Shown here: positions 10,433 to 39,018 of the stretch, in pieces
How positions within the stretch are numbered: position 1 is the stretch's first letter
Layout of the letters: each line of letters begins with the position of its first letter
DNA from: Anaerolineae bacterium
Lineage (GTDB): Bacteria > Chloroflexota > Anaerolineae > B4-G1 > DUEL01
Direction: 5' to 3'
DNA length: 50,137 nt
Assembly (NCBI GenBank): GCA_041082215.1
Contig: JBDOIF010000038.1
Span: 1-50,137, forward strand
Translations under genes and position numbers: made by a program
The notes under the pieces: generated by a model
Told to the model about the DNA's origin: nothing
Database searches by the model: none
What the model saw: only the letters and a program-made list of their open reading frames with translations

Positions 10433-10461
10433 ATTCTACCACAACTCGGTGCAGGTGATAA
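10433..10461 (-). promoter_or_regulatory. sigma70-type promoter of rfbB
   Basis: Minus strand TTATCA (10461-10456), 17-nt spacer, TG-n-TAGAAT (10438-10433). Confidence 0.6.
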
Positions 10462-10476
10462 ATGGGCTTCTACAGG

Positions 10477-10667
10477 AGGTGTATTTCAGTTTGGGGGCGA
10501 GATGTCCCTGGCCCGGGCCGGACCTGGGGAAACACGAATGGCGCGAATGGAAACGAATACCGCGAATGGAGCAGGTATCCCTCCTGTTCGCCGTATTCGG
10601 GCCATTCGTGGGATTCGCGATCCACCGGCGAGCGAGAGGACCACTCGCCCCGAAATTGAAATACGCC
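10477..10667. mobile_element. MITE family A, copy 1
   Basis: Terminal inverted repeats GGTGTATTTCAGTTTGGGGGCGAG / CTCGCCCCGAAATTGAAATACGCC; flanking direct repeat CTTCTACAGG; near-identical to copies at 18379 and 38828. Confidence 0.9.
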
Positions 10668-10670
10668 CTT

Positions 10671-11603
10671 CTACAGGGGGCCCTGGGCCAGTCGGGCGAT
10701 CTTCGGGCCGACTTCCCGCCAGGAGATTTCGGAAAGCCCCAGTTTCTGCCGCAGCCGATTTGGCGGCATCCCCGCCTGGTAATCCCGCACTGCACAGGTC
10801 CAGCGGAGCATCTCGAAGGAGAGATCATCGGGAAGGTTGGCCCTCCTGGCTATATCCTTAAGCACATACTCGAGGTTGCGGGCAGTGCAGGGGAAGAGAC
10901 GTTCCTGGGGTTGATACTGAGCTTTGTACTCGCCCAGCACTTCGGGCCACCAGGCCGGTAGGCGGAGCTGTCTTTCTTTATGTCGGCGGCGGGGGTTGGC
11001 GTATCGGATCCAGAGGACCGGCTGGCCCGGATCGGAGAGGTCAATGTGGTTGAGGACGATGTTCATACACTCCCCCTTCTTGATCCCGGTGTGCAGCAGC
11101 AGCGTGACCAGGAGGTGAGGGCGCGCATCCGGGGGGTCGCCGTTTCGGAGGGCCTGGGTGGTCTCCAGCATCCGCTCGATCTCCTCATCGGAAAGGATGC
11201 GGGGGAGAGGGGTCAGCACTGGCCGATGGACGACCGGAGCGGCGGGGTCCTCCGAAAGCACCCCCGTCTCCGCCAGCCAGCCGAAGAAAACCTTGAGGGT
11301 GGTGATGCGGCGGGCCAGCGACTTGGGGTTGCACGGTACCCCCCGCTCGCTCACCAGCCAGCGGACAAACTGGTTCAGCTCGCGCGTCCCGATCGCCCCG
11401 ACAGCGGTGCCGGCCCCCACGTATTGAATCAGGATCTGAAGATCGGAATTGAAGGCCTGAACGGTGTGGGGGCTGAAATCCCGCTCCCGCATGTAGAGCT
11501 GGAAGCCATCCACAGCGGCGCGGAGGGAAGAGCGGGCAGTGAGACCCGCAGGGGGATCGGAACGGGACTCGTCACCCGGACTGTCATTTATCCGTTCGGC
11601 CAT
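10671..11603 (-). CDS. XerD-like tyrosine recombinase-fold protein with degenerate catalytic residues
   Basis: SAM-like N-domain (SPHTVQAFNSDL, SLARRITTLKVFFGWL), LPRILS, HTGIKKGE, SFEMLRWT, LGL; no C-terminal Tyr; ATG 11603 with AGGAG SD. Confidence 0.85.
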   Translation of the reverse strand: MAERINDSPGDESRSDPPAGLTARSSLRAAVDGFQLYMRERDFSPHTVQAFNSDLQILIQYVGAGTAVGAIGTRELNQFVRWLVSERGVPCNPKSLARRITTLKVFFGWLAETGVLSEDPAAPVVHRPVLTPLPRILSDEEIERMLETTQALRNGDPPDARPHLLVTLLLHTGIKKGECMNIVLNHIDLSDPGQPVLWIRYANPRRRHKERQLRLPAWWPEVLGEYKAQYQPQERLFPCTARNLEYVLKDIARRANLPDDLSFEMLRWTCAVRDYQAGMPPNRLRQKLGLSEISWREVGPKIARLAQGPL

Positions 11604-11643
11604 CGCCTGTCTCCTCTTCTTCGCATAGGTATAACCTGAGGCC

Positions 11644-11671
11644 ATTGTAGCGCACCTCTCCGACCTGTCAA
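11644..11671 (-). promoter_or_regulatory. sigma70-type promoter of the XerD-like gene
   Basis: Minus strand TTGACA (11671-11666), 16-nt spacer, TACAAT (11649-11644). Confidence 0.65.
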
Positions 11672-11748
11672 GCTCTCAGCCAGTGCCCACCAACCCGCCC
11701 GGCTGGGAAATTTGGGATAAAGTTATCGTTTTATTTGGCTTATCGGAC

Positions 11749-11778
11749 TTGACAATGGGGAGATAAATATGGTATGAT
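11749..11778 (+). promoter_or_regulatory. sigma70-type promoter of the FtsK-domain operon
   Basis: TTGACA (11749-11754), 18-nt spacer, TG-n-TATGAT (11773-11778). Confidence 0.75.
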
Positions 11779-11788
11779 AACAGCGCAT

Positions 11789-11802
11789 AGAACGAATGTT
11801 CT
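11789..11802. promoter_or_regulatory. LexA (SOS) box
   Basis: AGAAC-GAAT-GTTCT matches the GAAC-N4-GTTC LexA motif of Firmicutes, Actinobacteria and Chloroflexota; lies just downstream of the -10. Confidence 0.75.
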
Positions 11803-11853
11803 TATTTCTTTCATCGTGGGGGGTTTCCGATGGGAGCGCAGCGGGGAGGAGAC

Positions 11854-12930
11854 ATGCGCAGGATGCTGGAATACCAGGCAGACCGCATCGAGGCGGTGCT
11901 GGCCCAACACCGGGTGCCGGGGCGGGTGACGGGAGGCACAGTAGCGCCCCGCTGGATCCGCTTCCAGGTTCTCCCGGCGATGGGGGCCCGCATCGCCACC
12001 ATCAAAAACCTCTCCGAGGAGCTGGCCGCCGCCCTGGACGCCCCCTCCGTCCGCGTCGCCCGACGGGGCGCCGCCGTCGCCATCGAGGTCCCACGGGACG
12101 ACCCCCAGCCCATCCGCCTTCTCCCCCTTCTCCGCGCCCTCCGCAACGTCCCGCCCGTCACTGCCTGCCTGGGGCTGGACGATGAAGGCGTGCCCCTCCT
12201 CATCCGCCTCCCCTCACCCGATGTCGCCCACGTCCTGGTCGCCGGAACCACCGGCAGCGGCAAGACCGTCCTCCTGCGTTCGATGGCCCTCAGCCTGGCC
12301 CTCCGCCACCCCCACCCCGGCGAGCTGGCCCTGCTCCTCATTGACCCCAAAGGACGGGCCTTCCGGGAGCTGGCCCCCCTCCCCCAACTGGCCCGGCCGG
12401 TGGTGGTGGAGGTGGGGGAGGCGGTGGAGGCGCTGGGAAGCCTGGTCCGCCTGATGGAACGGCGGGACCGGTGGGGGGAGAGCCAGCCCCCGGTGGTGGT
12501 GTTCATTGATGAGCTGACCGACCTGATGATGGTCGGCGGGGCAGAGACGGAGCGCCGATTGACGCGGCTGTTGCAGCGGGGGCGGGAGGCAGGCATCCAC
12601 ATTGTGGCTGCCACCCAGAAGCCGACGGCGGCGGTCATTGGCAGCCTGGTCAAGGCCAACTTCCCGGTCCGGCTGGTGGGGAAGGTGGCCAGCCCGGAGG
12701 ATGCGCGGGTGGCCGCCGGGCAGGGAGGGACCGGTGCGGAACGGCTACTGGGGCGGGGGGATTTCATCGCCGTGGCGGAGGGGCGGCTGTACCGGTTCCA
12801 GGCCGCCTATGTCACCTCCGAAGAGATCGCAGAGGTCGTCTCCGCCCTGCGCTGTGAGGGGGTGCTCCGGCTGGAGTCGGGCCAGGTGTGGGAGGCGATC
12901 CCGGCAGGGGTCGGAGGCGGAGAGGAATAG
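11854..12930 (+). CDS. FtsK/SpoIIIE motor-domain protein (alpha and beta domains only)
   Basis: Alpha-domain-like N-terminus (VAIEVP), Walker A GTTGSGKT, LIDPK, Walker B VVFIDE, ATQKP, GAERLLGRGD; no TM segments and no gamma domain. Confidence 0.88.
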   Translation: MRRMLEYQADRIEAVLAQHRVPGRVTGGTVAPRWIRFQVLPAMGARIATIKNLSEELAAALDAPSVRVARRGAAVAIEVPRDDPQPIRLLPLLRALRNVPPVTACLGLDDEGVPLLIRLPSPDVAHVLVAGTTGSGKTVLLRSMALSLALRHPHPGELALLLIDPKGRAFRELAPLPQLARPVVVEVGEAVEALGSLVRLMERRDRWGESQPPVVVFIDELTDLMMVGGAETERRLTRLLQRGREAGIHIVAATQKPTAAVIGSLVKANFPVRLVGKVASPEDARVAAGQGGTGAERLLGRGDFIAVAEGRLYRFQAAYVTSEEIAEVVSALRCEGVLRLESGQVWEAIPAGVGGGEE

Positions 12931-12933
12931 GAA

Positions 12934-13148
12934 CGCAATGATGAGTTTTAACAGATTAATCCGGCCATAATCCTGCGCGGCTCTTGTGGAAACAACGGGG
13001 CGCAGGCCGCCAGGCCTGCAGGGACAGGCTAACAGCCTGCGCTACGCCCGGCCATTCTTGTGGGCATAGTGCTCCCCGACCACGCAAATTCCCGGAGAAC
13101 CTCCTGCACCATTGTGCACGGATTAATTTTTCAAAGTTCATCATTGCG
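12934..13148. mobile_element. MITE-like element family B carrying an internal REP-like pair
   Basis: 30-bp terminal inverted repeats (25/30 match) CGCAATGATGAGTTTTAACAGATTAATCCG / CGGATTAATTTTTCAAAGTTCATCATTGCG. Confidence 0.7.
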
Positions 13149-13194
13149 CCCGTGCTGCGCCCCGATGATGGGGCAGGGATGAAGGGAGGAGAAG

Positions 13195-13620
13195 ATGGAG
13201 GGATCATATGGCTACAATATGCCCCCCGATCCGGGTCGGAACCGACCCTGGGCGCGGTTGCGGATGTTTGGGGGTCTTCTTGCGGTCGTCTTTGCTGTGA
13301 CGCTGGCCGTCCTGATCGGGCAACGGCTCAGCGACCAGGCGATGGCAGTGCTGGCGGGGGCGGTGTGCGGCGTGGGGGCCAGCATTCCCACCAGCCTCCT
13401 CATCGTGTGGGTCACCCAGCGGCGGCGCGAGCAGCAGCCTGCGCAGATAACCGGGGCCTACCCACCCGTGATCGTCGTCCAGCCGCCCCCTCAGCCTGGC
13501 CTCTCGGGACAGGCGCCGGGCCAGCCGGGATACCTGGCCCCTTTCTCGCCGCCAGCCCAGCGGGAGTTCACCGTCGTCGGCAGCGAGGGAGAGGAGGTGA
13601 GATATGGCCGTTACCAGTGA
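13195..13620 (+). CDS. Hypothetical membrane protein (two hydrophobic helices, Pro-rich tail)
   Basis: SD GGAGGAG; hydrophobic segments at about aa 25-42 and 51-73. Confidence 0.7.
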   Translation: MEGSYGYNMPPDPGRNRPWARLRMFGGLLAVVFAVTLAVLIGQRLSDQAMAVLAGAVCGVGASIPTSLLIVWVTQRRREQQPAQITGAYPPVIVVQPPPQPGLSGQAPGQPGYLAPFSPPAQREFTVVGSEGEEVRYGRYQ

Positions 13621-13906
13621 GGCGCGGCGGCCCCGTTCCGGCCGGGAGATCCGGCAGCGTCCGGGCAAGGGGGCCGAGCCGGTGGAGGTGCGCCAGAAAC
13701 GGCACAATTATTTCCCCCACGTGTTCGTCTGGCGTGGGCGGGAGTATCGGGTAGAGGCAGTGGAGCAGTGCTGGACCCTTTCCCGACGCGGTCAGGGGGG
13801 ACGGGTTGAGGGGCACTGCTTCCGCGTCCGTTGCCAGGAAGGCACCTTCGACCTGTTCCAGGACGCACGGGTGGGCACCTGGCACATGAAGCGAAAGGTA
13901 CGATAG
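13604..13906 (+). CDS. Small beta-rich protein, DUF6504-like
   Basis: P..FVWRGREYRV..V.Q.W...FRV.....FDL.......W pattern; SD GGAGGTGA; overlaps the upstream stop. Confidence 0.65.
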   Translation: MAVTSEARRPRSGREIRQRPGKGAEPVEVRQKRHNYFPHVFVWRGREYRVEAVEQCWTLSRRGQGGRVEGHCFRVRCQEGTFDLFQDARVGTWHMKRKVR

Positions 13907-13915
13907 GAGGCAAAG

Positions 13916-14692
13916 ATGAAAGTGTATCGAGTGGAAAACAGGGACCAGGCACAGGCAGCCTACCCGTGTGCGACGGAAAGCCCCACCCCTTTCTGGGCCG
14001 ATGGCCTGTCCCTTTCCAGAGAGTGGTTCGCCGAGAGCCTGGGGCAGTTCGTGGAGGGCTTCCACCTCGAAGACGACACCGGCCGGGTGATCGGGCACAT
14101 CTACTGGGCACCGTCCGAAAGAGCGCTGGTTCCCTATCGCATCGAGGAGGGTGCCGCTTTCCTGTACTGCGAGTGGTTGCAGCATTCCTACCGGGGACGG
14201 GGTTATATGCGGATGCTTTTCGACGCCTTTGTGGCCTTTCTCCGGCGCGAAGGTTGCAAAGGGATTCTGGTGGACGGCACGGAATTCGAAGGGTATATGC
14301 ACTATCGCCACTTCGCCAGGAGGGGCTTTCGGGTGATCCAGCAGGGAGATGGAGGGGGGTTAATGTATCTGCCGCTGTCGCAGGAAGCGGTCCACGTAGA
14401 AACCCTTCACCCACGGATAACCCGAGGGGGGATAGCGCCGGTCGAAGTGCTGATCATCGGCTCCCGCTTCTGTCCGGTGGGCGCGTCGGCTGTGCTGGCG
14501 GTTCGGAAGGTAGCGGGCGAGCTGGGGGCAGGTGTGGTGGTGCAGGAAGTGCCGGCGGGACCCGATGCCCTCGCCCGCTACGGCGTGGCCGACGGGATCT
14601 TCGTCAACGGAAAGGCGCGCTTCTTCGGCCCGGTCACCGAAGAGCAGGTCCGCGCCACCCTTCAGGAGGAGCTGAGACAGGCCATCGGCTGA
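13916..14692 (+). CDS. GNAT acetyltransferase with C-terminal thioredoxin-like domain (YoaP-like)
   Basis: YRGRGY acetyl-CoA motif, FARRGF; C-terminal FCP...YGVADGIFVNGK. Confidence 0.7.
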   Translation: MKVYRVENRDQAQAAYPCATESPTPFWADGLSLSREWFAESLGQFVEGFHLEDDTGRVIGHIYWAPSERALVPYRIEEGAAFLYCEWLQHSYRGRGYMRMLFDAFVAFLRREGCKGILVDGTEFEGYMHYRHFARRGFRVIQQGDGGGLMYLPLSQEAVHVETLHPRITRGGIAPVEVLIIGSRFCPVGASAVLAVRKVAGELGAGVVVQEVPAGPDALARYGVADGIFVNGKARFFGPVTEEQVRATLQEELRQAIG

Positions 14693-14716
14693 AACACTGG
14701 GGGTCTGGAGGGGGGA

Positions 14717-14986
14717 ATGAAGGTCGGGTTGTTGTGGTTTGATGATGATCCAGCGCGGGACCTGGAGCAGAAGGTGGGGCGGGCGGCCCGCCACTATCAG
14801 CAGAAGTTCGGGCGCTCTCCCAGCGTCTGTTACGTCCATCCCTCCCTGCTGAAGGGAGGAGAGCTGTGCCACGTGAACGGTTTGAAGGTGCTTCCCCTCC
14901 CCTCGGTGCTCCGCCACCACTTCTGGATCGGCGAAGAGGAGGGAAACGGATCATCCCCACGGCGAGAGCGCAGCCGGGCGGGTTAG
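14717..14986 (+). CDS. Hypothetical protein
   Basis: SD GGAGG; GLLWFDDD...AARHYQQKFG..P..CYVHP pattern; typical codon usage. Confidence 0.7.
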   Translation: MKVGLLWFDDDPARDLEQKVGRAARHYQQKFGRSPSVCYVHPSLLKGGELCHVNGLKVLPLPSVLRHHFWIGEEEGNGSSPRRERSRAG

Positions 14987-15017
14987 ACCGTTTCCATCAC
15001 CCCGCCTCTCGACCGGT

Positions 15018-16001: not shown

Positions 16002-16514
16002 CTACCCCTCGGTCTGGATGTGGTGGAGGACCAGCGGCCCCCGCTCCTCACGGACCACGCCGACGATCCGCAGATCGCCCACGTCCCCGTCGGTGGTCAC
16101 CCGGGACTGGAGAACCGCCCCCAGCCTCTGCCCCAGAATAAAGCCGAAAGTCGCCACCAGCAGGACCAGCGGCAATCTCCCCAACCACTCCCCCAGGCTC
16201 CGGCGGCGGGGGGTTAGGACGGCGAAGACCCCCATCCCCGCCAGCGATCCGGCAGCGACGAAGTTGGTCCCGCAGGTGGGATGGACCGCCAGCTCCTTCT
16301 GGCCCGCCTTCAGCCGGGCCAGGGCCTCCTGCACCGCCTCCACCACCGTCTCGGTGGGCAGGTTTCCATAAAGGATGAACCCGCGAAGAGTAGAGCGGCC
16401 CACAACCCGCAGGTCCCGACACCGGCGGCTGAGGACATGGATGGTGGCATGCTCCAGAGCATGGTTGCGACGGATGCGCTCGATCAGTGGGTGGGAAAGC
16501 AGCGTTCTCAACAT
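16002..16514 (-). CDS. DUF6391-like membrane protein
   Basis: RIRRNHALEHATI, LAVHPTCGTN, two hydrophobic segments. Confidence 0.7.
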   Translation of the reverse strand: MLRTLLSHPLIERIRRNHALEHATIHVLSRRCRDLRVVGRSTLRGFILYGNLPTETVVEAVQEALARLKAGQKELAVHPTCGTNFVAAGSLAGMGVFAVLTPRRRSLGEWLGRLPLVLLVATFGFILGQRLGAVLQSRVTTDGDVGDLRIVGVVREERGPLVLHHIQTEG

Positions 16515-16524
16515 CTCCGGCCTC

Positions 16525-17310: not shown

Positions 17311-17394
17311 CTGCCTACAGACTCCCGCTACACAGAGAAGGCGGCGCGTCTGGCCATAGGGCCGACCCGCCGCCGTCGTGACGTATCGCTATCC

Positions 17395-18261
17395 TCACCA
17401 CGCTCCAGGTGCGTTCCGACCCTCCGACGGCAGCAAGGCTTCAGGGGAACCGGTGCGAGCAGCAGGCGGCTCAGGTTTGGGTCGAGATTCCGGCATGGAG
17501 ACGATACGGCCATCCACCATCAGCCACAGGCCAACCCGACTGTCCAGGTCCTTCCCATCGGCAGGCCAGAAGACCACTGCGGTAGGAGGGCCAGCGGTGG
17601 TGGCGTCGGGGATGTAGGCTGCGATCGGCCGGTTGCTGTAGCGGGCGAAGGGCCGCTGGGGGCCAAAGACCGTCAGTGCGCTTCGGGCCCCCTCGTCCAT
17701 CGCCGCCACGGTCGCTACCCAGTGACCCTCGGGAGGCAGGCCGCACCGCACCGCCACGGCACGGGCATAGGAGTCCAGAATATCCTGGGCATACCGGCGC
17801 GGGCCTCGCAGATGGACCTGCTCCCACCCGCCGTTGTAGGCCGCCAGCGCCTGGTAGAGGTCTCCGTGGGATTGGCGGATCACAATGGAGAGGGCCCGCG
17901 CTCCCCAGAATACATTGTTTGAGGGGTCTTCCAGGGCGGCAGCGGTGGGCCGCCAGGGGAACCCGGCCTCCCTGGGCATGACCATCATCAGGCCAACTGC
18001 TCCGGCCGGACTATGGGCTTTGGGTTGCCCGAGCGACTCATTCCATATGACGGCAGCGATCAGGTCGGGGTCCAGCCCTCGCTGATGGGCATACTCAAGG
18101 ATGATCGGTTCCCATTGCTGGATAGCCGGCCCCCAATAGGGAGAGAGATTGGGATTCGGAGCGGGCGGCTGCACAGAAGGGTGGGCGAAGACAGGAGAGA
18201 CCAGGGACAGGGTCCCTATCGCCACCAGAGTGGCGATCATGCCCCATTTTGTCTGAAGCAT
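17395..18261 (-). CDS. Secreted lytic transglycosylase (SLT domain)
   Basis: Signal peptide; LIAAVIWNES catalytic Glu, GAVGLM, ALAAYNGG. Confidence 0.85.
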   Translation of the reverse strand: MLQTKWGMIATLVAIGTLSLVSPVFAHPSVQPPAPNPNLSPYWGPAIQQWEPIILEYAHQRGLDPDLIAAVIWNESLGQPKAHSPAGAVGLMMVMPREAGFPWRPTAAALEDPSNNVFWGARALSIVIRQSHGDLYQALAAYNGGWEQVHLRGPRRYAQDILDSYARAVAVRCGLPPEGHWVATVAAMDEGARSALTVFGPQRPFARYSNRPIAAYIPDATTAGPPTAVVFWPADGKDLDSRVGLWLMVDGRIVSMPESRPKPEPPAARTGSPEALLPSEGRNAPGAW

Positions 18262-18333: not shown

Positions 18334-18362
18334 AATATAGCCGAAATCTCCGTTTGTGTCAA
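18334..18362 (-). promoter_or_regulatory. sigma70-type promoter of the lytic transglycosylase
   Basis: Minus strand TTGACA (18362-18357), 17-nt spacer, TATATT (18339-18334). Confidence 0.75.
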
Positions 18363-18378
18363 GCACACCTTACAGGAC

Positions 18379-18567
18379 AGGTGTATTTCAGTTTAGGGGC
18401 GAGATGTCCCTGGCCCGGGCCGGACCTGGGGAAACACGAATGACGCGAATGGAAACGAATACCGCGAATGGAGCAGGTATCCCCCCTATTCCGTATTCGG
18501 GCCATTCGTGGGATTCGCGATCCACCGGTGAGCGAGAGGACCACTCGCCCCGAAATTGAAATACACC
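18379..18567. mobile_element. MITE family A, copy 2
   Basis: Same terminal repeats and interior as copy 1; flanking direct repeat CTTACAGGAC. Confidence 0.9.
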
Positions 18568-18568
18568 C

Positions 18569-20242
<1,674 letters not shown>

Positions 20243-20260
20243 TTCACTCCCTCACGACGC

Positions 20261-20330
20261 TTGACGCTTGACGTTTGACGTTTGACGTTTGACGTTTGAC
20301 GTTTGACGCCTGACGTTTGACGTTTGACGC
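20261..20330. repeat. Heptamer tandem repeat (TTGACGY) x10 with degenerate flanks
   Basis: Ten consecutive units read directly between rnc and the mutase gene. Confidence 0.95.
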
Positions 20331-20351
20331 CCGACACCCAACGCCCACGAC

Positions 20352-21074
20352 TCACGCCTCACGTTTAACGCCCCTCAACGCCTCTTCGGCTGCGGCCCGC
20401 TCGGCGGCCTGCTTGGAGTGACCCTCGCCGCGGCCGATCACCTCCTGGTCCAGCAGGACCTCAGCGATGAAGGTTTTGGCATGGTCAGGGCCGATCTCAG
20501 CCACGATGCGGTAGCGGGGCGTGATCCCTCGCTCTCCCTGGGCCCATTCCTGGAGCCGGCTCTTGGCATCCTTATCCGCCTCGGCGGCCAGGATAGCCTG
20601 AGCGACCGGTTCGATCAGAGGGTACAAAAGCCGGCGGACCGGTTCCAGATCTCCGTCCAGGTAGAGGGCACCCATCAGCGCCTCGAAGCCGTCCCCCAGG
20701 TTGGCGGGCCGTTCCCGACCGCCTCCTTCTTCCTCTCCGCGGCCCAACCGGAGCACATCCCCCAATCCCAGTTGGGCTGCGAACTGGGCGAGGGTCTCTT
20801 CCCGCACCAGCACGGCGCGCAGCCGGGTCATCTCCCCTTCCTGGAAATCGGGATAACGCTGGAAGACCCAGGCGGCCACCGCCATACCGAGCACCGCATC
20901 CCCCAGGAACTCCAGCCGCTGGTTATCCGGCCCCTCCTCCGGATGTTCATTGACATAAGAGGGATGGGTGAGGGCACGGAGCAGCAGCCCCATATTCCGG
21001 AAGCGGTAGCCAATCCGGTCCTGGAATATCTCCAGGCTTATCTTTTGATTGACGTTTGACGCTTGACGTTCCAC
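20352..21074 (-). CDS. rnc: Ribonuclease III
   Basis: ALTHPS, NQRLEFLGDAVL, FEALMGALYLD, dsRBD (KSRLQE, GPDHAKTF, SKQAAE). Confidence 0.95.
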   Translation of the reverse strand: MERQASNVNQKISLEIFQDRIGYRFRNMGLLLRALTHPSYVNEHPEEGPDNQRLEFLGDAVLGMAVAAWVFQRYPDFQEGEMTRLRAVLVREETLAQFAAQLGLGDVLRLGRGEEEGGGRERPANLGDGFEALMGALYLDGDLEPVRRLLYPLIEPVAQAILAAEADKDAKSRLQEWAQGERGITPRYRIVAEIGPDHAKTFIAEVLLDQEVIGRGEGHSKQAAERAAAEEALRGVKREA

Positions 21075-21076
21075 GT
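21049..21076. repeat. Heptamer repeat (TTGACGY) x3 plus one degenerate unit at the rnc 5' end
   Basis: TTGACGT TTGACGC TTGACGT TCCACGT. Confidence 0.85.
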
Positions 21077-21077
21077 T

Positions 21078-21392
21078 TCAGGTTTGAGGTAGGGATCCCG
21101 CTCCCCCGCGCCGTGCCAATCTCTTTCTATATTTTTCCAGCGCCGCTTCGAGCGCCTGACCAGCGTCCACGCCACAGGCTTCGGCCAGCGCCAGGAGGGA
21201 ATAGAGAACATCTCCCAGCTCGGCAGTCAGCTCCGGGCCGGCACAGAAGGGACGGCGGCCGTAGTCGGTAGCCAGCAGGACCTCTTTGGCCACCTCCCCC
21301 ACCTCAGAGGCCAGGTCGAGGGCGTGGGTGGCAGGGTCGTGAAGGATCCCCTGGGCCTGGGCGAAGGTGGCGACCCGACGTTGCCAGTTCAT
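21078..21392 (-). CDS. MazG-like nucleotide pyrophosphohydrolase
   Basis: SEVGEVAKE and ELGDVLY motifs. Confidence 0.85.
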   Translation of the reverse strand: MNWQRRVATFAQAQGILHDPATHALDLASEVGEVAKEVLLATDYGRRPFCAGPELTAELGDVLYSLLALAEACGVDAGQALEAALEKYRKRLARRGGAGSLPQT

Positions 21393-21553: not shown

Positions 21554-21583
21554 CTGTAGGACAAGCTTCAGCTTGTCCTGCAG
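21554..21583. repeat. GTAG-type REP-like palindrome
   Basis: CTGTAGGACAAGCT-TC-AGCTTGTCCTGCAG; same family as 43959-43990. Confidence 0.75.
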
Positions 21584-30892: not shown

Positions 30893-30910
30893 GCGTTGAG
30901 GAGGCTTGAG

Positions 30911-32349: not shown

Positions 32350-32393
32350 ACTCTAATCTCCTGCAGGACAGCTCTTCAGGAGTTGTCCTACGT

Positions 32394-35141
32394 TTATTTT
32401 AAAGGCAAAATCACGGTCAGGCGGGTGCCGCCGCCCGGGCGGGAACGGATCCGGAAACGTCCGCCCCATTGGGCCACGCGCTCGCAGATGCCCTGGAGGC
32501 CCATCCCGCCGGAAACCTGCGCCGGGTCAAAGCCACACCCATCGTCTCGCACCTGTACGACGAGGTAGCCGCTGCGTTGCCCGATGTCCACCCACACCCG
32601 GTCGGCATTGGCATGTTTGAGCGCATTGTTGAGGGCCTCCTCCAGAATGTAGTAGACGGACTGCTCCAGTTCGTGCGGCAGTCTGGCCGGCAAATCGTAG
32701 TGTAAGTAGGTCTGGATGACAGCGCGCTGTTCTACGGTGTCCAGCCGTTGTCGCAACGTGGCCGCCAGCCCCATTTCGGTCAGGTCGGGCGGACGCAGGC
32801 GATAGAGCATCAGGCGCATCTCGCGCAGGGCCCGGAAGGCGCTTTCGCCCAGGCGGGCCAGGTAGGTTTGTGCGGCCTCGGTCTCTCCGGCGCGGATGGC
32901 TTTGGCGCTGGCATCGGCGAACAACACCTGCGAGTAGAGGAGCTGGGTGACCGAATCGTGCAGGTCGCGGGCCAGGCGATGCCGTTCTTCGGTGACGGCG
33001 GCGATAGCCAGACGTTCGCGCCAGCGGATGTTCTCCTGTGCCGCGCCCAACTGTCGCGCCACGGCCTCCATCAGTTCCAGTTGTTCCATCCCGAACATGT
33101 AGGCGCGCTGTCCCAGGTAGACCATCAGGCCCACGTCGCCGTTCCCGGCGGGCAACGGGATGCTCGCCAGGGTCTGGTAGGGAAAATCCACGAACTCGTC
33201 GGCGGGCAGCATCTCGGCCAGCCGGGGGCTTTCGGCCAGATTATGCAGCAGCAACGTCCCCCCTTCGGCGCGCAACCGATTCCACAGCGGCGAGGCGGCC
33301 AGTTTTTCCGCCAGTGTCGGTGCCATTCCCCAGGAAGCAGCCAGAACCAGTGTATCTTTCTCATCGGGCAGCAGGATCATCCTGGCCTCGCCGCCGATGT
33401 TGGGCAGGACACGGCGCAGAGCCAGCGAAAACAACTCGTCCACAGAGCAGGCCTGATTGATCAACAGGCTGATCTCGTATAGCGTCGCCAGTTCATGGTT
33501 GCGTTCTACGATGCGCTGTTCCAGCGCGCGGTTCAGCGTGCGCAGGTCGTCTTTGGCCGCCCGCAGCGAGCCGATCATAAGATTGAAAGCGCGGGCCAAC
33601 GCGCCGATTTCATCCTGAGCATGAACCGGCACTGTCACGCTCAAATCGCCCTGGTCCACCCGGGTGATGCCTTTGAGCAGGTCAGTGAGGGAATTCACCA
33701 GCGACATCTTGAAGAAAAGCGAGAGCGCCGCTGTTGCCACGACGGTCACGCCGACCATCATCCCGGACAGCGACAGGGCGGCACGATGGAGAAATCGGCG
33801 ATACTCCAGATAGTCAAAGCCCACTTCGTATTGCGCTCCGTCGTGGTAAAAGACGTAGCGCAGAAAATGTTCCCCCGGCGGCGCTGTGGCCCCCCGATAC
33901 ATCGGCGTATGCTCCGGCAGGGAGAGGCGGTCCATCACCTTCGGGTTGCCCAGCAGGGGCAGGAGGCCGTCAAAGCCCAGCCAGGGATGTTCACACGCCA
34001 GGACGTCCAGGCTCCAGTGGTCGCCCCGCGCCAGGCGTTCCCGCCAGAAGGCATCCCAGCGCGCCAACGTTTCGCCGGTCAGACGCGGGTCGCGAGATAA
34101 GAGCACGTCGTAGCGGTCGGCAAAGAGACCGTCCGGGGCGCGCACGGCCAGGTACCGCACTGCCGCTGGCAGCGCGTCCAGTTGCCCCAGCGCCACGCCC
34201 ATCTGCACCAGTTCCACCTCGGCCAGCCGGACCTGGAAGAACAGGGCCTGCTGGGCCATCATGGTCTGGTGGGAGACAGCCCCTGCAAACAACAGGATGC
34301 CCAGCAACGCCGCCCCTACCAGACGCACCAGGAAGGTCAGCGCTTCGGGGGCGCGCCCGGTGTAGGCGACGAAGAAAATGAACATCACGATGGAGCAGGT
34401 GATGGGGAAGATGTTGGGGATGCGGCTGGTCGGCTCCAGCGTGGAGGCCAGCGTCGGCAACGGCGTCAGGAGGTGCAGCAGCAGCCAGGTGCGGGAAACG
34501 CGGGCCTCTTCCTCCTGCGGCGACCCGAGCGCGCGCAGTACCCTCTGCCAGCCCCGGTCCGAATTCCCGGCGAATTGCACCGTCCTGCGCGTCCAGACGA
34601 CCAGCAGCCACAGGTCCACGGCGATCTGCCAGAGGTCAAAAATCCGGTCCGGCGCCAGGCCGCGTGGGTTGGGATCTACCGAGTAGGAGAGAAAGTCGCC
34701 GAAATTGTAGACGGCGATGTTGTGGGCAGTGTCCAGGGCCTGGGTGGAGAAGTAATCGGTCTCGCGCGTCGGGGAACGGACGGCAACCCAGGCCATCCAT
34801 CCAAACAGGAAGAGCGTGAAGGCCAGCGACAGGAACAACACCGCCCGCGCTTCCAGCTCGTAGCGCGGGCGGGGGAAGTGATAAGCGAATTGCAACAGTG
34901 CCAGGCAGGCCAGCGCCGCGCCGCCGGTCGCTCCCAACCAGTCCACAACCATACCGGCGACGCCGTACAGTGAATAGGCCAGGCCGCGCGCCAGCGTCAT
35001 CAGGCTCATCCCACCCACAAAGCCCAAAAAGAGCCACGTCGGGCGGGATTTACCCCGGCGGGTTGCCAGGTAGCCGATGCCTATGGCCTGAAAGAGAATA
35101 ACCGGCAGGTAGCCGAGAGATTGAGGAGAAAGGAACAGCAT
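32394..35141 (-). CDS. Multi-TM sensor histidine kinase (HisKA_3 type with HAMP and GAF)
   Basis: ERHRLARDLHDSVTQ, EALNNALKHA, DDGCGF, GMGL; start uncertain (35141 or 35201). Confidence 0.9.
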   Translation of the reverse strand: MLFLSPQSLGYLPVILFQAIGIGYLATRRGKSRPTWLFLGFVGGMSLMTLARGLAYSLYGVAGMVVDWLGATGGAALACLALLQFAYHFPRPRYELEARAVLFLSLAFTLFLFGWMAWVAVRSPTRETDYFSTQALDTAHNIAVYNFGDFLSYSVDPNPRGLAPDRIFDLWQIAVDLWLLVVWTRRTVQFAGNSDRGWQRVLRALGSPQEEEARVSRTWLLLHLLTPLPTLASTLEPTSRIPNIFPITCSIVMFIFFVAYTGRAPEALTFLVRLVGAALLGILLFAGAVSHQTMMAQQALFFQVRLAEVELVQMGVALGQLDALPAAVRYLAVRAPDGLFADRYDVLLSRDPRLTGETLARWDAFWRERLARGDHWSLDVLACEHPWLGFDGLLPLLGNPKVMDRLSLPEHTPMYRGATAPPGEHFLRYVFYHDGAQYEVGFDYLEYRRFLHRAALSLSGMMVGVTVVATAALSLFFKMSLVNSLTDLLKGITRVDQGDLSVTVPVHAQDEIGALARAFNLMIGSLRAAKDDLRTLNRALEQRIVERNHELATLYEISLLINQACSVDELFSLALRRVLPNIGGEARMILLPDEKDTLVLAASWGMAPTLAEKLAASPLWNRLRAEGGTLLLHNLAESPRLAEMLPADEFVDFPYQTLASIPLPAGNGDVGLMVYLGQRAYMFGMEQLELMEAVARQLGAAQENIRWRERLAIAAVTEERHRLARDLHDSVTQLLYSQVLFADASAKAIRAGETEAAQTYLARLGESAFRALREMRLMLYRLRPPDLTEMGLAATLRQRLDTVEQRAVIQTYLHYDLPARLPHELEQSVYYILEEALNNALKHANADRVWVDIGQRSGYLVVQVRDDGCGFDPAQVSGGMGLQGICERVAQWGGRFRIRSRPGGGTRLTVILPLK

Positions 35142-35330
35142 TGTATTGAATGTGCCCGGCACTTCCGGCAGTGCGGAACGACTGTCCCCGCATGTTCCCA
35201 CAACAGAGTCATTGCATCAGGACTTAACAGGTGTAGCACGGCTCCGCCCGGCTCACCGATCAGCCCCCAAGTTTATCACAGCTTGCCATTAATGCACAAC
35301 AACTCTAATCCCTTTATTTCATTTGTTCTA

Positions 35331-35359
35331 TTGACATCCACGCCGAGATGGAGTATATT
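35331..35359 (+). promoter_or_regulatory. Near-consensus sigma70 promoter
   Basis: TTGACA (35331-35336), 17-nt spacer, TATATT (35354-35359). Confidence 0.8.
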
Positions 35360-35365
35360 AAAAAC

Positions 35366-35530
35366 AAACAGACATCCGCCTCTCACCTCCGGCGCAAGGG
35401 ATGAGCGCCCAGGCACTTTACCGGCCAACGGTAAGCAAAAGCAGGGTCTGCAAAGAAGAGCGTTTACTGCGCCGGAGGGGAGACGGACCAGGAGGGCGGC
35501 AGGGTCATACAGACGGCCGCCCTCTCTCAT
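35366..35530 (+). ncRNA. Candidate structured small RNA of unassigned class
   Basis: Between a strong promoter and a terminator-like hairpin; 35375-35396 pairs with 35468-35487 to close a rod; no credible ORF. Confidence 0.6.
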
Positions 35531-35532
35531 TT
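35492..35532 (+). terminator. Terminator-like hairpin
   Basis: GAGGGCGGC ... GCCGCCCTC followed by TCTCATTT; abuts the convergent PHP gene stop. Confidence 0.55.
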
Positions 35533-36288
35533 GTACGGGTGAGGCCTGCCCCGCCTGTCAGCCCACCCCAACCGGCGGACGAGCTTGGCATACAGGGTGA
35601 TGAGATGAACCCAGAAGGGACTCATCCGCCCCTGGACCTGGGCCTCCCGCAGGCTTTGAAGGAAGGAAGATGGGGAATCGAAAGGGGGAAGGACCGTTAC
35701 CGCACGGCCCAGCTCCCAGAGGCTGTGAGCGTCGCTACCGGCCACCACGGGAAGCCCCCGCTCCCAAGCCAGCACCTGAGCAGCCCGGTTGTCGGCCATC
35801 CGGAGGCAGCGGGCGTTCAACACCTCCAGGAAGTCCACCTGGTCCAGCAGTGGAAGCAGCGCCCTCCGCCGTATGGCCTCGCGGCGGAATGAATCGAGGG
35901 GATGGGAGATGCCGACGACCCCGCCCTGAGCGCGAACGGCTGCGATGGCCTCCTGGGGGGAAAGCCCTGAGGGGACCGGAGCGGTGAGGAAATAGGCGAT
36001 CAACTCTCCGTGGGTGGTGCGGATCTCCTCCCCCACCACGATCCGCTCGGGGTCCATCTCCTTCAGCCGGAGGGCTCCTGCGATCGTGTTGTGATCGGTG
36101 ACAGCCACCCGATCCAGCCCTTTGCGCTGGCAGGCCTGGAGAAAGTCCTCCAGCTCTACCAGACAGTCGCGGGAGAAGAGGGTGTGGGTATGGAGATCAC
36201 ACCGCCACCTTTCCCGACCGCCCTGCCCGTCGTCGGCTTTTCCACCGACCGGTGAAACTCCGGAACTTTCGAAACAGGAGTTACACAC
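35527..36288 (-). CDS. PHP-domain metallophosphoesterase
   Basis: DLHTHT, AVTDHN, GEEI, SHP, GSDAH; start uncertain. Confidence 0.85.
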   Translation of the reverse strand: MCNSCFESSGVSPVGGKADDGQGGRERWRCDLHTHTLFSRDCLVELEDFLQACQRKGLDRVAVTDHNTIAGALRLKEMDPERIVVGEEIRTTHGELIAYFLTAPVPSGLSPQEAIAAVRAQGGVVGISHPLDSFRREAIRRRALLPLLDQVDFLEVLNARCLRMADNRAAQVLAWERGLPVVAGSDAHSLWELGRAVTVLPPFDSPSSFLQSLREAQVQGRMSPFWVHLITLYAKLVRRLGWADRRGRPHPYK

Positions 36289-36304
36289 TTGCCACAGGAG
36301 AAAA

Positions 36305-36380
36305 ACCACAGAGACACGGAGGACACAGAGAAACACCGGGAACCTTCTGCAGAACTCTGTGCCCTCTGTGCCTCTGTGGT
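36305..36380. repeat. Hairpin of ~9-nt CACAGAG/CTCTGTG repeat arms
   Basis: ACCACAGAGACACGGAGGACACAGAG ... CTCTGTGCCCTCTGTGCCTCTGTGGT. Confidence 0.75.
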
Positions 36381-36448
36381 GAGAAAAGGCTTAATTGCGC
36401 AAGCCCTGATGAAACAGGCCAGGCACGCGCCTGGCCCTTGTTTCTGCC

Positions 36449-37630
36449 TTACGGCTCTGCTGGGACCTTTCCCTGCCAGTCCTCACTGTACTCGACCGAG
36501 GACTGCTGCAGCTTGAACCATTCCTGAACAGCGCGGCTCTCTTCAAATGACCGCATCAACGGGTCCAGCTCCCGCTCCTCGTGGCCCAGCACCTGGAAGA
36601 CGTAGTAGCGGCCACTGCTTCCCAGCACAGGCCCGCCATACCCCTCCACCGGGGTATCAAAGACAGCCTGCGCCACCTCCTCGCCGAACTGATCGGTGAG
36701 ATACCCCTTCGTTCGCCAGTCCAGCTCGTTGGCGTAGGCAGTGCTTTCCTCATCCGCCTCGATCTCGGCGACCAGGTCCTCCCACTTTGCCCCTCCATCC
36801 AGCCGTTCCACCATCTGGTCTGCGTCCTCCTGAGCCGGGAAGGCGACGTAGCGGACCTTCACCTGGTCCATACTGGAGGGAACGGAGCTGGTGAGGGCCT
36901 GGCGGACTTTATCGTAGAGGAGGCTCACCTCCACCATTGCCCGGAACCCTGCCTCGCCCAGGCCGCTGGGGTCCAGCACGTTTGTCACAAAATCCTGATA
37001 GAGTTGCTCAAATTCCTCCCGGGTCAGCGACGTGGTGGGGGTCAACGGCTCGGTTTCCGTCACAGGGCCGGTGGAGAGCGGGGCCGATTCCTCAGCGGAA
37101 GCTTCTTGCTCGTAGCCGAACTCCTGCTCGATGGCGCGGTCTATCTCCTCCTGAGAGACCGTGATCCCTCTTCGGGCCGCCTCCTGACGGATGATCTCCT
37201 CCTGCACCATCTGGTCCAGCACCTGCTGCCCCACGAAGACGGCATATTCAGGAGAAAGCTGAGCTTCCAGCTCTCGTATGGCCTCGTCCAACTGGTCGAA
37301 GAGCGGCGCCATCTCCGGATCGGTGGGGTCCAGGCTCATCCTCTGGACCCTATACCGATCCAGTTGTTGCTGGAGCATGAGCCGCTGATACCGCACCCGC
37401 TTCTCGAACTCGGCCGTTGTGATCGGCGTTCCGGCCACCGTCGCCACCGGCTCCCGCGCCCGAAACACGAACTCGGCCAGGTACCCGTAGAGCAGGATGC
37501 CCACGACCGCCACACTGACGGCGACGGTGCCGAAGATGAGCCACCGGTTCATCCGGGCCTCCCGTTCGGCGCGGGTGCGCTGTTTTTTCGTCAGGGGGCG
37601 AGGGGGGGCTGCTTTTTTCTTCTTCGCCAT
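36449..37630 (-). CDS. SurA/PrsA-like foldase (SurA N-domain with degenerate PPIase domain)
   Basis: Basic N-tail and TM, PVATVAGTPI, VLDQMVQEEIIRQEA, QVKVRYV, ELDW. Confidence 0.8.
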   Translation of the reverse strand: MAKKKKAAPPRPLTKKQRTRAEREARMNRWLIFGTVAVSVAVVGILLYGYLAEFVFRAREPVATVAGTPITTAEFEKRVRYQRLMLQQQLDRYRVQRMSLDPTDPEMAPLFDQLDEAIRELEAQLSPEYAVFVGQQVLDQMVQEEIIRQEAARRGITVSQEEIDRAIEQEFGYEQEASAEESAPLSTGPVTETEPLTPTTSLTREEFEQLYQDFVTNVLDPSGLGEAGFRAMVEVSLLYDKVRQALTSSVPSSMDQVKVRYVAFPAQEDADQMVERLDGGAKWEDLVAEIEADEESTAYANELDWRTKGYLTDQFGEEVAQAVFDTPVEGYGGPVLGSSGRYYVFQVLGHEERELDPLMRSFEESRAVQEWFKLQQSSVEYSEDWQGKVPAEP

Positions 37631-37671
37631 TTCGCTACCGATCCCTACCCGTGGAGATGCCGGCTGGGGAG

Positions 37672-37986
37672 TCAGCCGCCGCGGATGTGCTCGGACGTAA
37701 AGGGCAGCAGTGCCAGATGACGGGCCCGCTTGATCGCCCGAGCCAGTTGTCGTTGATGGCGGGCGCAGGTTCCCGTCTGCCTTCGCGGCTTGATCTTTCC
37801 CCGGTCGCTCAGGAATCGGATCAGCGTTTCCGCATCCTTATAGTCAACCTGCGCAATCTCCTCGGAGCAGAAATAACAACGGCGGACCCCCCGTCGCCAC
37901 TGGTGTCGAGAGCTGTCCACGGGACGGCCGCCCGAGGACCTCCTCGTCGTCTCTCCCTCTCCCCGCATCTCTGTACGCTCTGCCAA
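37672..37986 (-). CDS. rpsR: 30S ribosomal protein S18 (Zn-binding form)
   Basis: [42 protein letters not shown] start with GGAGGTGA SD. Confidence 0.95.
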
Positions 37987-38014
37987 GACTCACCTCCCGA
38001 TACAGGCCCCCTCC

Positions 38015-38404
38015 TTAGAAGGGAAACTCCTCATCTGTTTCCATCAGGCTGTCTTCTTCTTCCTCCTGGCGTGGGCCGCCGAGCAGGATCATCTCCTGCG
38101 CCACCAGCTCGGTCCGAAAGTGCTTTCCGCCGTTCTCGTCCTCCCATCCCCGGGTCTGAAGGCGGCCTTCGATGTACACCTGGTGCCCCTTGCGCAGCCG
38201 CTGTTTGCAGATCTCGGCCAGGTTTCCCCAGGCGACCACGTTGAACCATTCTGTCTCCTCCCGTCGCTCCCCCTCGGCGGTCGTCCACGAGCGCGGGGTC
38301 GCTACGGTGAAGGAGGTCACCGGTCGCCCGTTGGGAGTGTACCGCATCTCCGGGTCTCGCCCCAGGCGGCCGATGATCATCACCTTGTTCAACCCTCTGG
38401 CCAT
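38015..38404 (-). CDS. ssb: Single-stranded DNA-binding protein
   Basis: LNKVMIIGRLGRDPEMRYT, TEWFNVVAW, VYIEGRLQTR, acidic EEFPF tail. Confidence 0.96.
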   Translation of the reverse strand: MARGLNKVMIIGRLGRDPEMRYTPNGRPVTSFTVATPRSWTTAEGERREETEWFNVVAWGNLAEICKQRLRKGHQVYIEGRLQTRGWEDENGGKHFRTELVAQEMILLGGPRQEEEEDSLMETDEEFPF

Positions 38405-38406
38405 CT

Positions 38407-38700
38407 CTATTCCTCTTCTCCCAGGCGCACGATGAGGTGGCGGATGATCTGCTCTTTGAGCCTGAGCCCCCGCTCCAGTTCGGCCACGCCATCCGCCTTG
38501 AGACTGACCTGCATAAACACATACTGGCCTTCCCGCACCTTCTGAATGGGATAGGCCAGCCGTCGCAGCCCCCACAGATCGACCTTGTGGACGACGCCGC
38601 CGGTGGATTCGACGAGGCCTTTCACCTCTTCGACCGTCGCCGCCAGCCCCTCCCGATCGAGCTGGGGGTGCACAATATAGGTTAGTTCATAGTCGCGCAT
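38407..38700 (-). CDS. rpsF: 30S ribosomal protein S6
   Basis: MRDYEL, WGLRRLAYPI, EGQY, IIRHLIVR. Confidence 0.96.
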   Translation of the reverse strand: MRDYELTYIVHPQLDREGLAATVEEVKGLVESTGGVVHKVDLWGLRRLAYPIQKVREGQYVFMQVSLKADGVAELERGLRLKEQIIRHLIVRLGEEE

Positions 38701-38704
38701 CGGA

Positions 38705-38775
38705 CGGTTTACCTCCTTTCCACGGGATTGCCCCCGGACCCGGCCGGGAGCGGAAAGCCCGTCAGGGCGCGTAAC
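38705..38775 (-). promoter_or_regulatory. Probable rpsF leader (S6:S18 autoregulatory RNA)
   Basis: Structured 5' UTR (ACGGG/CCCGT stem, inner GCTCCCGG/CCGGGGGC stem, CCC, CTTTCC complementary to GGAAAG overlapping the SD). Confidence 0.5.
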
Positions 38776-38782
38776 AGGGCAT

Positions 38783-38811
38783 ATGATAACACAAAGGGCA
38801 GCTTTTGGCAA
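38783..38811 (-). promoter_or_regulatory. sigma70-type promoter of rpsF-ssb-rpsR
   Basis: Minus strand TTGCCA (38811-38806), 17-nt spacer, TG-n-TATCAT (38788-38783). Confidence 0.75.
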
Positions 38812-38827
38812 ACAGCCCGCAGCCCAT

Positions 38828-39018
38828 AGGTGTATTTCAGTTTGGGGGCGAGATGTCCCTGGCCCGGGCCGGACCTGGGGAAACGCGAATGGCGCGAATG
38901 GAAACCAATACCGCGAATAGGGCTGGGATCCCTCCTGTTCGCAGTATTCGGGCCATTCGTGGGATTCGCGATCCACCGGCGGGCGAGAGGACCACTCGCC
39001 CCGAAATTGAAATACGCC
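38828..39018. mobile_element. MITE family A, copy 3
   Basis: Same terminal repeats and interior as copies 1 and 2; flanking direct repeat CGCAGCCCAT. Confidence 0.9.

Follow-up and report, generated by a model that had tools for sequence, protein, structure and literature searches.

The non-coding repeat family A, found in an uncultured hot-spring bacterium of the class Anaerolineae (Chloroflexota), sits 15-16 bases upstream of the -35 box of predicted sigma70-type promoters, and it is likely (with a probability of roughly 0.7) that it does so by means of an ISKra4-family transposase, which acts in trans and docks on promoter-bound RNA polymerase. The family is a MITE: it is short, multi-copy and without a transposase gene, and has inverted ends in common with autonomous insertion sequences (IS) as well as target duplications. 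Three copies were seen in the window, i.e. the whole analysed stretch of 50,137 nucleotides (contig JBDOIF010000038.1), together with the following features.

9363..10391, minus strand: rfbB, dTDP-glucose 4,6-dehydratase (TIGR01181, above cut-off; start position from our own gene calling), downstream of promoter 1
10433..10461, minus strand: predicted sigma70-type promoter 1 (motif match), TTATCA-17-TAGAAT (TG-extended), distance to the element end 15 nt
10468..10476, plus strand: promoter-side 9-bp target duplication of copy 1, 0 mismatches
10477..10668, plus strand: family A copy 1, 192 bp, with the A-end at 10477 as the putative right end of the parent IS
10669..10677, plus strand: far 9-bp target duplication of copy 1
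10671-11645, minus strand: tyrosine-recombinase ORF upstream of copy 1, with its stop codon inside the far duplication of copy 1
17395..18261, minus strand: SLT-domain lytic transglycosylase (PF01464), downstream of promoter 2
18334..18362, minus strand: predicted sigma70-type promoter 2 (motif match), TTGACA-17-TATATT, distance to the element end 16 nt
18370..18378, plus strand: promoter-side 9-bp target duplication of copy 2
18379..18568, plus strand: family A copy 2, 190 bp
18569..18577, plus strand: far 9-bp target duplication of copy 2
18569-20242, minus strand: methylmalonyl-CoA mutase ORF, with its stop codon inside the far duplication of copy 2
38407..38700, minus strand: rpsF (ribosomal protein S6), then ssb (TIGR00166, TIGR00621), downstream of promoter 3
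38783..38811, minus strand: predicted sigma70-type promoter 3 (motif match), TTGCCA-17-TATCAT, distance to the element end 16 nt
38819..38827, plus strand: promoter-side 9-bp target duplication of copy 3
38828..39019, plus strand: family A copy 3, 192 bp
39020..39028, plus strand: far 9-bp target duplication of copy 3

The initial annotation had described these three copies, their terminal inverted repeats, the lack of an internal transposase, the distances of 15, 16 and 16 nt between the A-end and the -35 hexamer and the downstream genes rfbB, lytic transglycosylase and rpsF, and all of this was borne out. Mutual identity of the three copies was 96%, and the terminal inverted repeats of the family match at 21/25 and 25/31 positions.

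Genome-wide search of the source genome (G000) revealed 94 A-ends and 83 G-ends, the copy number being about 90, and the promoter motif was found to recur at the fixed distance beyond the three copies of the window. The promoter spacing at family A ends is far above chance. A predicted sigma70-type promoter was located 13-18 bp outside one end in 62/94 cases (controls 0.1% and 0.95%). At 14-17 nt the motif was present at 49/94 A-ends and 17/83 G-ends, to be compared with 12/20,000 random positions and 2,120/222,513 upstream intergenic positions, and among strict promoter matches within 40 nt of an end, 64/104 were at 15-16 nt. The proposal that the copies mark active promoters was upheld as far as the motif is concerned, which is present in about two thirds of copies; the contigs of one RNA run gave little cover. 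A strict promoter was lacking at either end in 29/80 paired copies, and any promoter under a relaxed rule in 23/80; near-miss motifs or an adjoining stacked element account for some of these, while several stay unexplained.

Distance to the promoter depends on the length of the target duplication. Over the 80 paired copies the duplication was 9 bp in 41, 8 bp in 20 and 10 bp in 2, with none recognisable in 17. The length of 10 bp given in the initial annotation is thus the best fit in 2/80 copies, and the duplications in the window are of 9 bp, the final C being part of the element. Among the 41 copies with 9-bp duplications, 26 have the TTG start at 16 nt and none has it at 15 nt; for the 20 copies with 8 bp the figures are 12 at 15 nt and 5 at 16 nt (p=4e-7 for the dependence, obtained with no promoter caller); the -10 peak shifts likewise. 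The gap between duplication and -35 box was 7 bp in 29/34 single-sided copies and also in 9/9 copies with a 16-bp spacer. This gap is a strong tendency and not a rule, since 5/17 TTG matches in copies with 8-bp duplications were at 16 nt. The position of family A is anchored to the -35 box rather than to the -10 box. Related ends in loci from 38 other genomes had a promoter at 52/108 ends, with a peak at 15-16 nt, and followed the same length rule (9/11 and 12/15, p=0.004).

The promoter was on the side of the A-end only in 31 of the 80 paired copies, of the G-end only in 13, of both in 7 and of neither in 29. Both orientations are present, with a bias of about 2.4:1, and the fixed orientation claimed from the window alone did not hold, as in those 13 copies just the G-end faces the promoter, at the same distance. 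The A-end begins with A, where G is usual, in 67/70 copies; the terminal C is present at the G-end in 65/70 copies, and the A-end carries A/T in 67/70. A-terminal ends also flank the autonomous relatives C169 and L032. An ‘SPPN-stop’ reading of the A-end, considered as proof of a right end, was weakened by left ends of some full IS that read likewise; with the last 10 residues, 0/120 homologues agreed at more than 5 positions.

ISKra4-family transposase genes lie between ends of the family A type. Full IS with such ends were found at loci L051, L058, L068, L074 and L077, the left end of L029 differs from the family A end by 2/25 mismatches, and an IS remnant in the source genome (C150) matches the A-end at 24/25 bases. 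With the ISKra4-family model NF033572 (cut-off 205), C82 IS1 (211), L032 (229) and P0002, P0013 and P0044 (244-272) scored above the cut-off, and the partial frames of L029 (199), C169 (162) and C82 IS2 (162) below it, though with this model as the best match. The ISLre2 transposase model gave 54-104 bits on proteins tied to these ends vs a cut-off of 200. ISLre2 was rejected as mobiliser because the ends of the source genome's own ISLre2-like element (C132) differ from those of family A (13/25 mismatches). The ISLre2/TnGBS assignment in the initial annotation has therefore to be replaced: the ends go with ISKra4-family transposases, and transposase-bearing IS with ends of this type, such as it proposed to look for, belong to that family. 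Its broader view is supported: the element is non-autonomous, falls in the prokaryotic Mutator-like group and keeps a constant spacing upstream of promoters of the sigma70 type. The IS256-type Pfam model PF00872 had no match in the source genome. A complete parent IS with both family A ends was found neither in the assembly, nor in one metagenome scan (1 match, a relative), nor among 18 loci of genome contigs. Of the C169 IS only a part is present, with 6/25 mismatches to the A-end; IS of its type occur in two sequencing runs with several different flanks, along with contigs without the frameshifting base.

Alignment of 93 homologues showed D209, D289, D310-x-x-H313 and E402 of the transposase to be invariant, and P114-L115-D116, which follows a zinc-finger-like segment in the region between domains N1 and N2, to be near-invariant. 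The structural model (pLDDT 88.6) contains the helical insert, and its best fold match was ISCth4 (E 1.3e-8, TM 0.48-0.52, 11% identity); PDB sequence search returned no relative. One homologue is annotated as ISKra4 family transposase of an Anaerolineae bacterium.

The ISKra4 group corresponds to p-MULT 4, with ISKra2, ISKra4, ISKra5, ISKra6, ISDesp4 and ISTvi1 (Guerillot et al. 2014, PMC3942029). It was delimited there by junctions of which >20% have a promoter 13-17 bp away, with both sides represented, by duplications of 8-9 bp and inverted repeats of 18-39 bp with a terminal C, by a DDE triad with C/D(2)H motif and alpha-helical insert, and by a signature in which an Asp is conserved between N1 and N2; a circular transposition intermediate is a further trait of the group. 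Promoter targeting in both orientations was described for the group, including Chloroflexi members with promoter junctions, and accordingly the targeting behaviour of family A and its occurrence in Chloroflexi are already published and not new (PMC3942029). Family A agrees with p-MULT 4 in promoter junctions, duplications and repeat length, and the cognate transposase in the DDE triad, the D(2)H motif and the helical insert. Both the group and family A lie about 16 bp upstream of a sigma-A type -35 box, with promoters on either side, and make 8-9 bp duplications; end complementarity is 83-100% in the group and 84% in family A, and the group shares with the transposases tied to family A ends a DDE triad with D(2)H and, in some, a -1 frameshift (PMC3942029). 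Family A departs from the group in lacking a transposase gene, in having A rather than G at the start of its A-end and in a measurable orientation bias. Frameshifts are known in both the ISKra4 and the ISMich2 groups (PMC3942029); the idea that the frameshift denotes the ISMich2 group and contradicts the 2014 paper was discarded, as its Table S1 has frameshifted ISKra4-group members with promoter junctions. What is new here is that duplication length predicts the distance and that the landing window is nearly always 7 bases from the -35 box. The examined text of PMC3942029 does not state a link between duplication length and distance.

ISLre2/TnGBS elements (p-MULT 3) resemble family A in the distance of 15-17 bp, in duplication lengths and in a right end favoured beside the promoter, if the A-end is indeed a right end, but their orientation is strict in almost every member, and most are from Firmicutes (PMC3942029, PMC4701971). 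ISCth4 of the IS256 family (PDB 6XG8, 6XGX, 6XGW), the closest fold to the predicted transposase, moves by copy-out/paste-in with 8-bp duplications (PMC7780238). According to PMC3942029, IS256-family elements have no promoter-distance preference, unlike family A, and the predicted transposase differs from ISCth4 in the modelled zinc-finger-like segment (two CxxC pairs) and P-L-D before the putative end-binding helices. Prokaryotic MITEs such as Correia, MITEAba12 and QMITE1 are likewise short, non-coding, intergenic and hairpin-forming, with inverted ends and target duplications; the review (PMC10969869) describes MITEs that bring promoters with them, whereas family A inserts next to promoters of the host. 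The examined text of that review does not mention ISKra4, IS256, Mutator or Chloroflex.

We propose that family A would be moved by an ISKra4-family transposase supplied in trans, the best candidate donor being the multi-copy IS represented by contig C169, with chemistry that may be copy-out/paste-in by analogy with the IS256-family ISCth4 transposase. The transposase would dock on the promoter-bound holoenzyme, most likely sigma region 4 positioning the transposition complex, and the insertion window would be 8-16 bases upstream of the -35 hexamer. The A-end would be the right end of the parent IS. By the standard DDE stagger, the steadier of the two strand transfers, which lies at 7 bp from the -35 box, would fall on the template strand and be made by the element end that finishes far from the promoter. 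An 8-bp duplication would arise when one transfer, mostly the promoter-distal one, slips inward by one base. The outcome is a safe-haven insertion leaving promoter core and genes intact. Guidance by RNA polymerase is the hypothesis of the 2014 paper (PMC3942029), and the present geometry fits it without proving it.

It is unlikely, though worth serious consideration, that targeting is real but relies on direct recognition of promoter DNA by the transposase (of the -35 hexamer or of upstream bendability), or on some other factor bound at promoters, for instance the alpha C-terminal domain, with no sigma contact. At 8-16 bp upstream of the -35 box, the insertion window overlaps the DNA bound by the alpha C-terminal domain. 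A direct reader would give -35 anchoring too, and ISCth4 favours A/T-rich targets (PMC7780238). However, the duplication of family A shows neither a base consensus nor A/T richness. The -35 boxes beside the copies are degenerate (TTGCCC, TTGTCC, TTATCA, TTCCCA), yet accompanied by a correctly spaced -10 box, and at some sites there is just a -10 box, at the matching offset. The -10 peak also moves with duplication length. A DNA-only reader would need to cover about 45 bp.

Untargeted or merely intergenic insertion, followed by purifying selection that spared copies upstream of promoter cores, is very improbable. The copies are old, with a median divergence of 5.2% from the majority sequence and no identical pair among 70, so that there has been time for selection to act on sites. 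Between a quarter and a third of them, approximately, have no motif at the expected place, and just 3/80 paired copies sit between convergent genes. Nevertheless, selection would leave a broad shoulder rather than concentrate 64/104 matches at two positions, and the same peak is seen for unrelated MITE interiors and full IS in the 38 other genomes, and also for the source genome's ISLre2-type ends (4/10 with a promoter at 16-17 nt). Selection is refuted as the main cause because it cannot link duplication length to distance at one-base precision. We give hardly any credence to the repeat being a regulatory platform or structured RNA (insulator, terminator, activator site) kept for function. 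The whole element folds as a single long hairpin (z -7.4 and -8.8), its conservation is uniform along the length and its CGAAT-rich interior has just 2 weak matches elsewhere. Self-complementarity is, however, usual for MITEs, unrelated palindromes replace this interior in family B and in elements of other genomes, each site has a distinct duplication, and the inverted ends are common to transposase-bearing IS. Rfam gave no match across the whole window, and there is no terminator-like site at copy 1.

The way in which TnGBS, ISLre2 and ISKra4 elements find promoters is a proposal that dates from 2009-2014 and still awaits a test (PMC3942029). With about 90 copies in one genome, the landing geometry (the -35 anchor, the insertion window 8-16 bp upstream and one steadier edge) is better resolved than from the small number of junctions that the paper gives for each element, and it narrows down the part of the holoenzyme on which an ISKra4-family transposase would dock. 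Family A-type ends were found in 47/400 genomes of the class. It is possible, albeit doubtful, that they reflect a class-wide ISKra4-driven MITE radiation which shows to the single base how a Mutator-like transposase is seated on RNA polymerase: one transfer would be held fixed at 7 bp upstream of the -35 box via direct contact with sigma region 4, through a zinc-finger and P-L-D segment assembled by programmed frameshift, and the second transfer would slip by a base. If so, the polymerase-docking idea of 2009-2014 would become a precise structural prediction, and ISKra4-driven MITEs a promoter atlas for uncultured Chloroflexota. The copies already flag some 60 promoter motifs in this bacterium. 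Since genes stay unbroken when the element inserts upstream of promoters, its transposase could be a useful integration tool.

Among 40 relatives, with no genome of the same genus among them, family A sequence gave weak partial matches in 1. No joint skipping copy 3, as expected of an empty site, was detected in contigs of 4 sequencing runs; runs with small word shares were set aside as evidence. Contigs from one other study stop 30 and 26 nt inside copy 3, short of the 31-nt threshold applied, and do no more than hint that this copy is common to them.

Family A is a 192-bp MITE whose two termini, here termed the A-end and the G-end, match at 21 of 25 positions. Three copies, 96% alike, are present in the window, each with a minus-strand promoter motif outside its A-end. 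The distance from that end to the -35 hexamer and the gene downstream of the motif are given in brackets:

10477-10668, MITE family A copy 1 (15 nt; rfbB)
18379-18568, MITE family A copy 2 (16 nt; SLT transglycosylase)
38828-39019, MITE family A copy 3 (16 nt; rpsF)

Taking the final C as part of the element, the target duplication around each copy is 9 bp long and without mismatch. In the case of copies 1 and 2, the far duplication still supplies the upstream ORF with its stop codon, so that neither neighbour was damaged by the insertion. An Rfam search of the window gave no matches.

The promoter targeting proposed by the initial annotation was borne out genome-wide. The source assembly, in which the window is contig C24 (3.5 Mb, 65% GC and 96% complete in all), was scanned for ends with up to 7 mismatches in 32, which returned 94 A-ends and 83 G-ends; the former include two outside family A, an IS remnant (C150:110173) and a lone end (C157:11295), both retained in the counts. 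Under a strict promoter rule (-35 box starting with TT and matching at least 3/6, -10 box at least 4/6, total at least 8/12, spacer 16-18), a promoter was located 14-17 nt from 49/94 A-ends and 17/83 G-ends, against 0.95% of positions (2,120/222,513) across 1,327 intergenic regions upstream of genes predicted with our own caller, and 12/20,000 random positions. Among strict matches within 40 nt of an end, 64/104 were at 15-16 nt. When either side was considered at 13-18 nt, 62 of the 94 elements had a strict promoter and 69 a relaxed one, and only 3/80 copies were positioned between convergent genes. Of the 23 copies that lack even a relaxed motif, two carry TTGAC at 16 nt together with CATAAT, a box that the rule excludes, two adjoin another stacked element and several appear untargeted. 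In a few copies (C150:70534, C78:75948, C133:2532) a good -35 box stands 6-7 nt off an end, about one duplication length nearer than usual; some of these close boxes belong to divergent promoters, the rest being unexplained. Three RpoD-like sigma factors are present in the host (L158, L160 and L161; 49-56% identical).

Orientation of family A towards promoters is biased, and not fixed as had been claimed from the window: in 80 copies with both ends paired, the promoter was at the A-end only in 31 and at the G-end only in 13 (binomial p=0.0096), at both in 7 and at neither in 29. The A-end is likely the right end of the parent IS, since A-terminal ends of this genome come after transposase stops, yet some left ends read likewise.

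Duplications in these 80 copies, called with up to 2 mismatches, were of 9 bp in 41, 8 bp in 20 and 10 bp in 2; in the other 17 none could be recognised. Their length predicts the distance to the promoter: in single-sided copies, 9-bp duplications went with at least 16 nt in 21/22 and 8-bp duplications with at most 15 nt in 10/12 (p=5e-6). The same was seen without the promoter caller, by the position of a TTG start, which was at 16 nt in 26 and at 15 nt in none of the 41 9-bp copies, versus 16 nt in 5 and 15 nt in 12 of the 20 8-bp copies (p=4e-7). The gap from duplication to -35 hexamer was 7 bp in 29/34 copies, including 9/9 with a 16-bp spacer, and the gap to the -10 box was more scattered (30 in 21/34). 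No base consensus was found within the target duplication. This prevailing 7-bp gap, along with the length link, defines the target window as the stretch from 8 to 16 bp ahead of the -35 hexamer; when only 8 bp are duplicated, the base that is lost is mostly one at the far side. On the standard DDE stagger, the steadier of the two transfers would be to the template strand, by the end finishing far from the promoter.

Contig C169 of the source genome starts with an A-terminal end of family-A type, behind which comes the 3' portion of a transposase gene, and C82 (265-3113, locus L026) has a stack of two complete IS with 9 bp between them, bordered by divergent promoter motifs 15 and 16 nt away. 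These transposases score best with the ISKra4 family. Full-length homologues pass the ISKra4 cut-off and fall below that of ISLre2; the ISLre2/TnGBS assignment suggested previously was wrong. Across the 93 aligned of 120 homologues both the DDE triad and D(2)H are retained, and the predicted fold (pLDDT 88.6) is closest to ISCth4, the chemistry of which is given in PMC7780238. Related transposases are from Chloroflexota at 16 of 18 labelled loci. Single frames of at least 430 residues occur in 6/120 homologues; among 13 long frames inspected at 16 loci, 11 have the start of the catalytic frame just before a P-L-D motif, behind a T-run and a C-run, which suggests a programmed -1 frameshift.

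As assembled, the C169 copy is interrupted by one frameshift. Its extra base is absent from contigs of two sequencing runs (depth 47/102 and 380/525), in which C169-type contigs have a number of distinct flanking sequences at the end and extend into the slippery site; the window may itself come from one of these runs, and these contigs may derive from other organisms. Given the contigs lacking the extra base and the varied flanks, a C169-type IS is the best candidate donor of family A transposition, albeit not proven. Furthermore, the remnant at C150:110173 is 1/25 bases off the A-end and reads as a transposase C-terminus, and a metagenome search with the end pattern gave one match, an IS of 1.4 kb with a left end that departs from the A-end at 2/25 bases. 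An ISLre2-like element of the same genome was rejected as the mobiliser, its ends being unrelated, though 4/10 of them also lie 16-17 nt off promoter motifs.

According to Guerillot 2014 (PMC3942029), ISLre2/TnGBS elements and 13 IS of the ISKra4 group, Ktedonobacter elements among them, land some 16 bp upstream of sigma-A promoters with 8-9 bp duplications, and in the ISKra4 group promoters occur on both sides; contact with the initiation complex is proposed there. Streptococcal elements have a 15-16 bp distance and 8-bp duplications in PMC4701971. Family A is a well-supported, real MITE family of the ISKra4 group landing upstream of promoters, a kind of behaviour already known, to which it adds a member. 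Neither ISKra4 MITEs nor the length rule figure in the accessible parts of PMC10969869, PMC9208149 and bioRxiv 10.1101/2025.07.22.666184, nor did the listings from our literature searches contain a report of either; Brochet 2009 and Guerillot 2013 may contain the length rule. The present analysis adds base-level landing geometry, repeated across the class, and makes the polymerase-docking proposal sharper to test.

The end pattern was present in 47/400 other genomes of the class, where a reversed control pattern gave 0 matches. We examined 109 loci from 38 of these genomes (29 search-returned and 80 fetched; one without flank), 186 further matches being outside this set. A strict promoter was found at 13-18 nt from 52/108 ends, peaking at 15-16; in 57 loci with a second end it was at the first end in 19, the second in 16, both in 2 and neither in 20. 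The length rule was followed in 9/11 and 12/15 cases (p=0.004, kin not being independent). Paired elements were mostly short (100-470 bp), those inspected in sequence having unrelated interiors, and five of the examined loci held full IS. Family A itself was detected in 1/40 relatives, as weak partial matches only. Its copies diverge from the majority sequence by 0.5-8.3% (median 5.2%), with no identical pair among 70, which marks the family as the product of an old burst. Sequencing runs containing at least half of the window are hot-spring metagenomes from two studies.

A second ISKra4-ended MITE family, B (up to 204 bp; C123:27911-28114 and 12 more places), has promoter matches 14-17 nt from 8/13 and 3/10 ends; its ends surround a purine/pyrimidine-rich palindrome, also free-standing at window positions 132-184. 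A third family (window 12941-13143, about 200 bp, ATGAG-type ends, 7 left ends in the genome) has at least four copies in mid-palindrome of TGTAGGACAAGCT, and thus seems to target this short repeat rather than promoters. The apparent target, a REP-like palindrome (window 21555-21582 and 43961-43988), has many genomic copies (58 blastn rows).

An ISLre2-type MITE lies 8 bp from a family-A copy at C78:59579-59992, and a family-A copy 9 bp from the IS remnant at C150:110173-110374; in these stacks, as in C82, one promoter spot was reused. In C132 (L001), at C84:56463 and 64556, and at C87:220, ends of ISLre2 type lie 16-17 nt away from promoter motifs; in C132 it is the end preceding the transposase gene that faces the promoter, opposite to the published rule. 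Lone ISKra4-type ends with no partner found within 25 kb (C164:21824, C157:11295, C97:19928, C75:14880, C7:101350), most with a promoter-like motif and a gene inward, are probably decayed insertions. Intergenic tandem 7-mer repeats of TTGACGT type occupy window positions 20247-20359 and 21049-21112 (42 double units in the genome), and 2197-5241 and 5250-8105 are long tandem paralogous ORFs with several stretches 73-86% alike.
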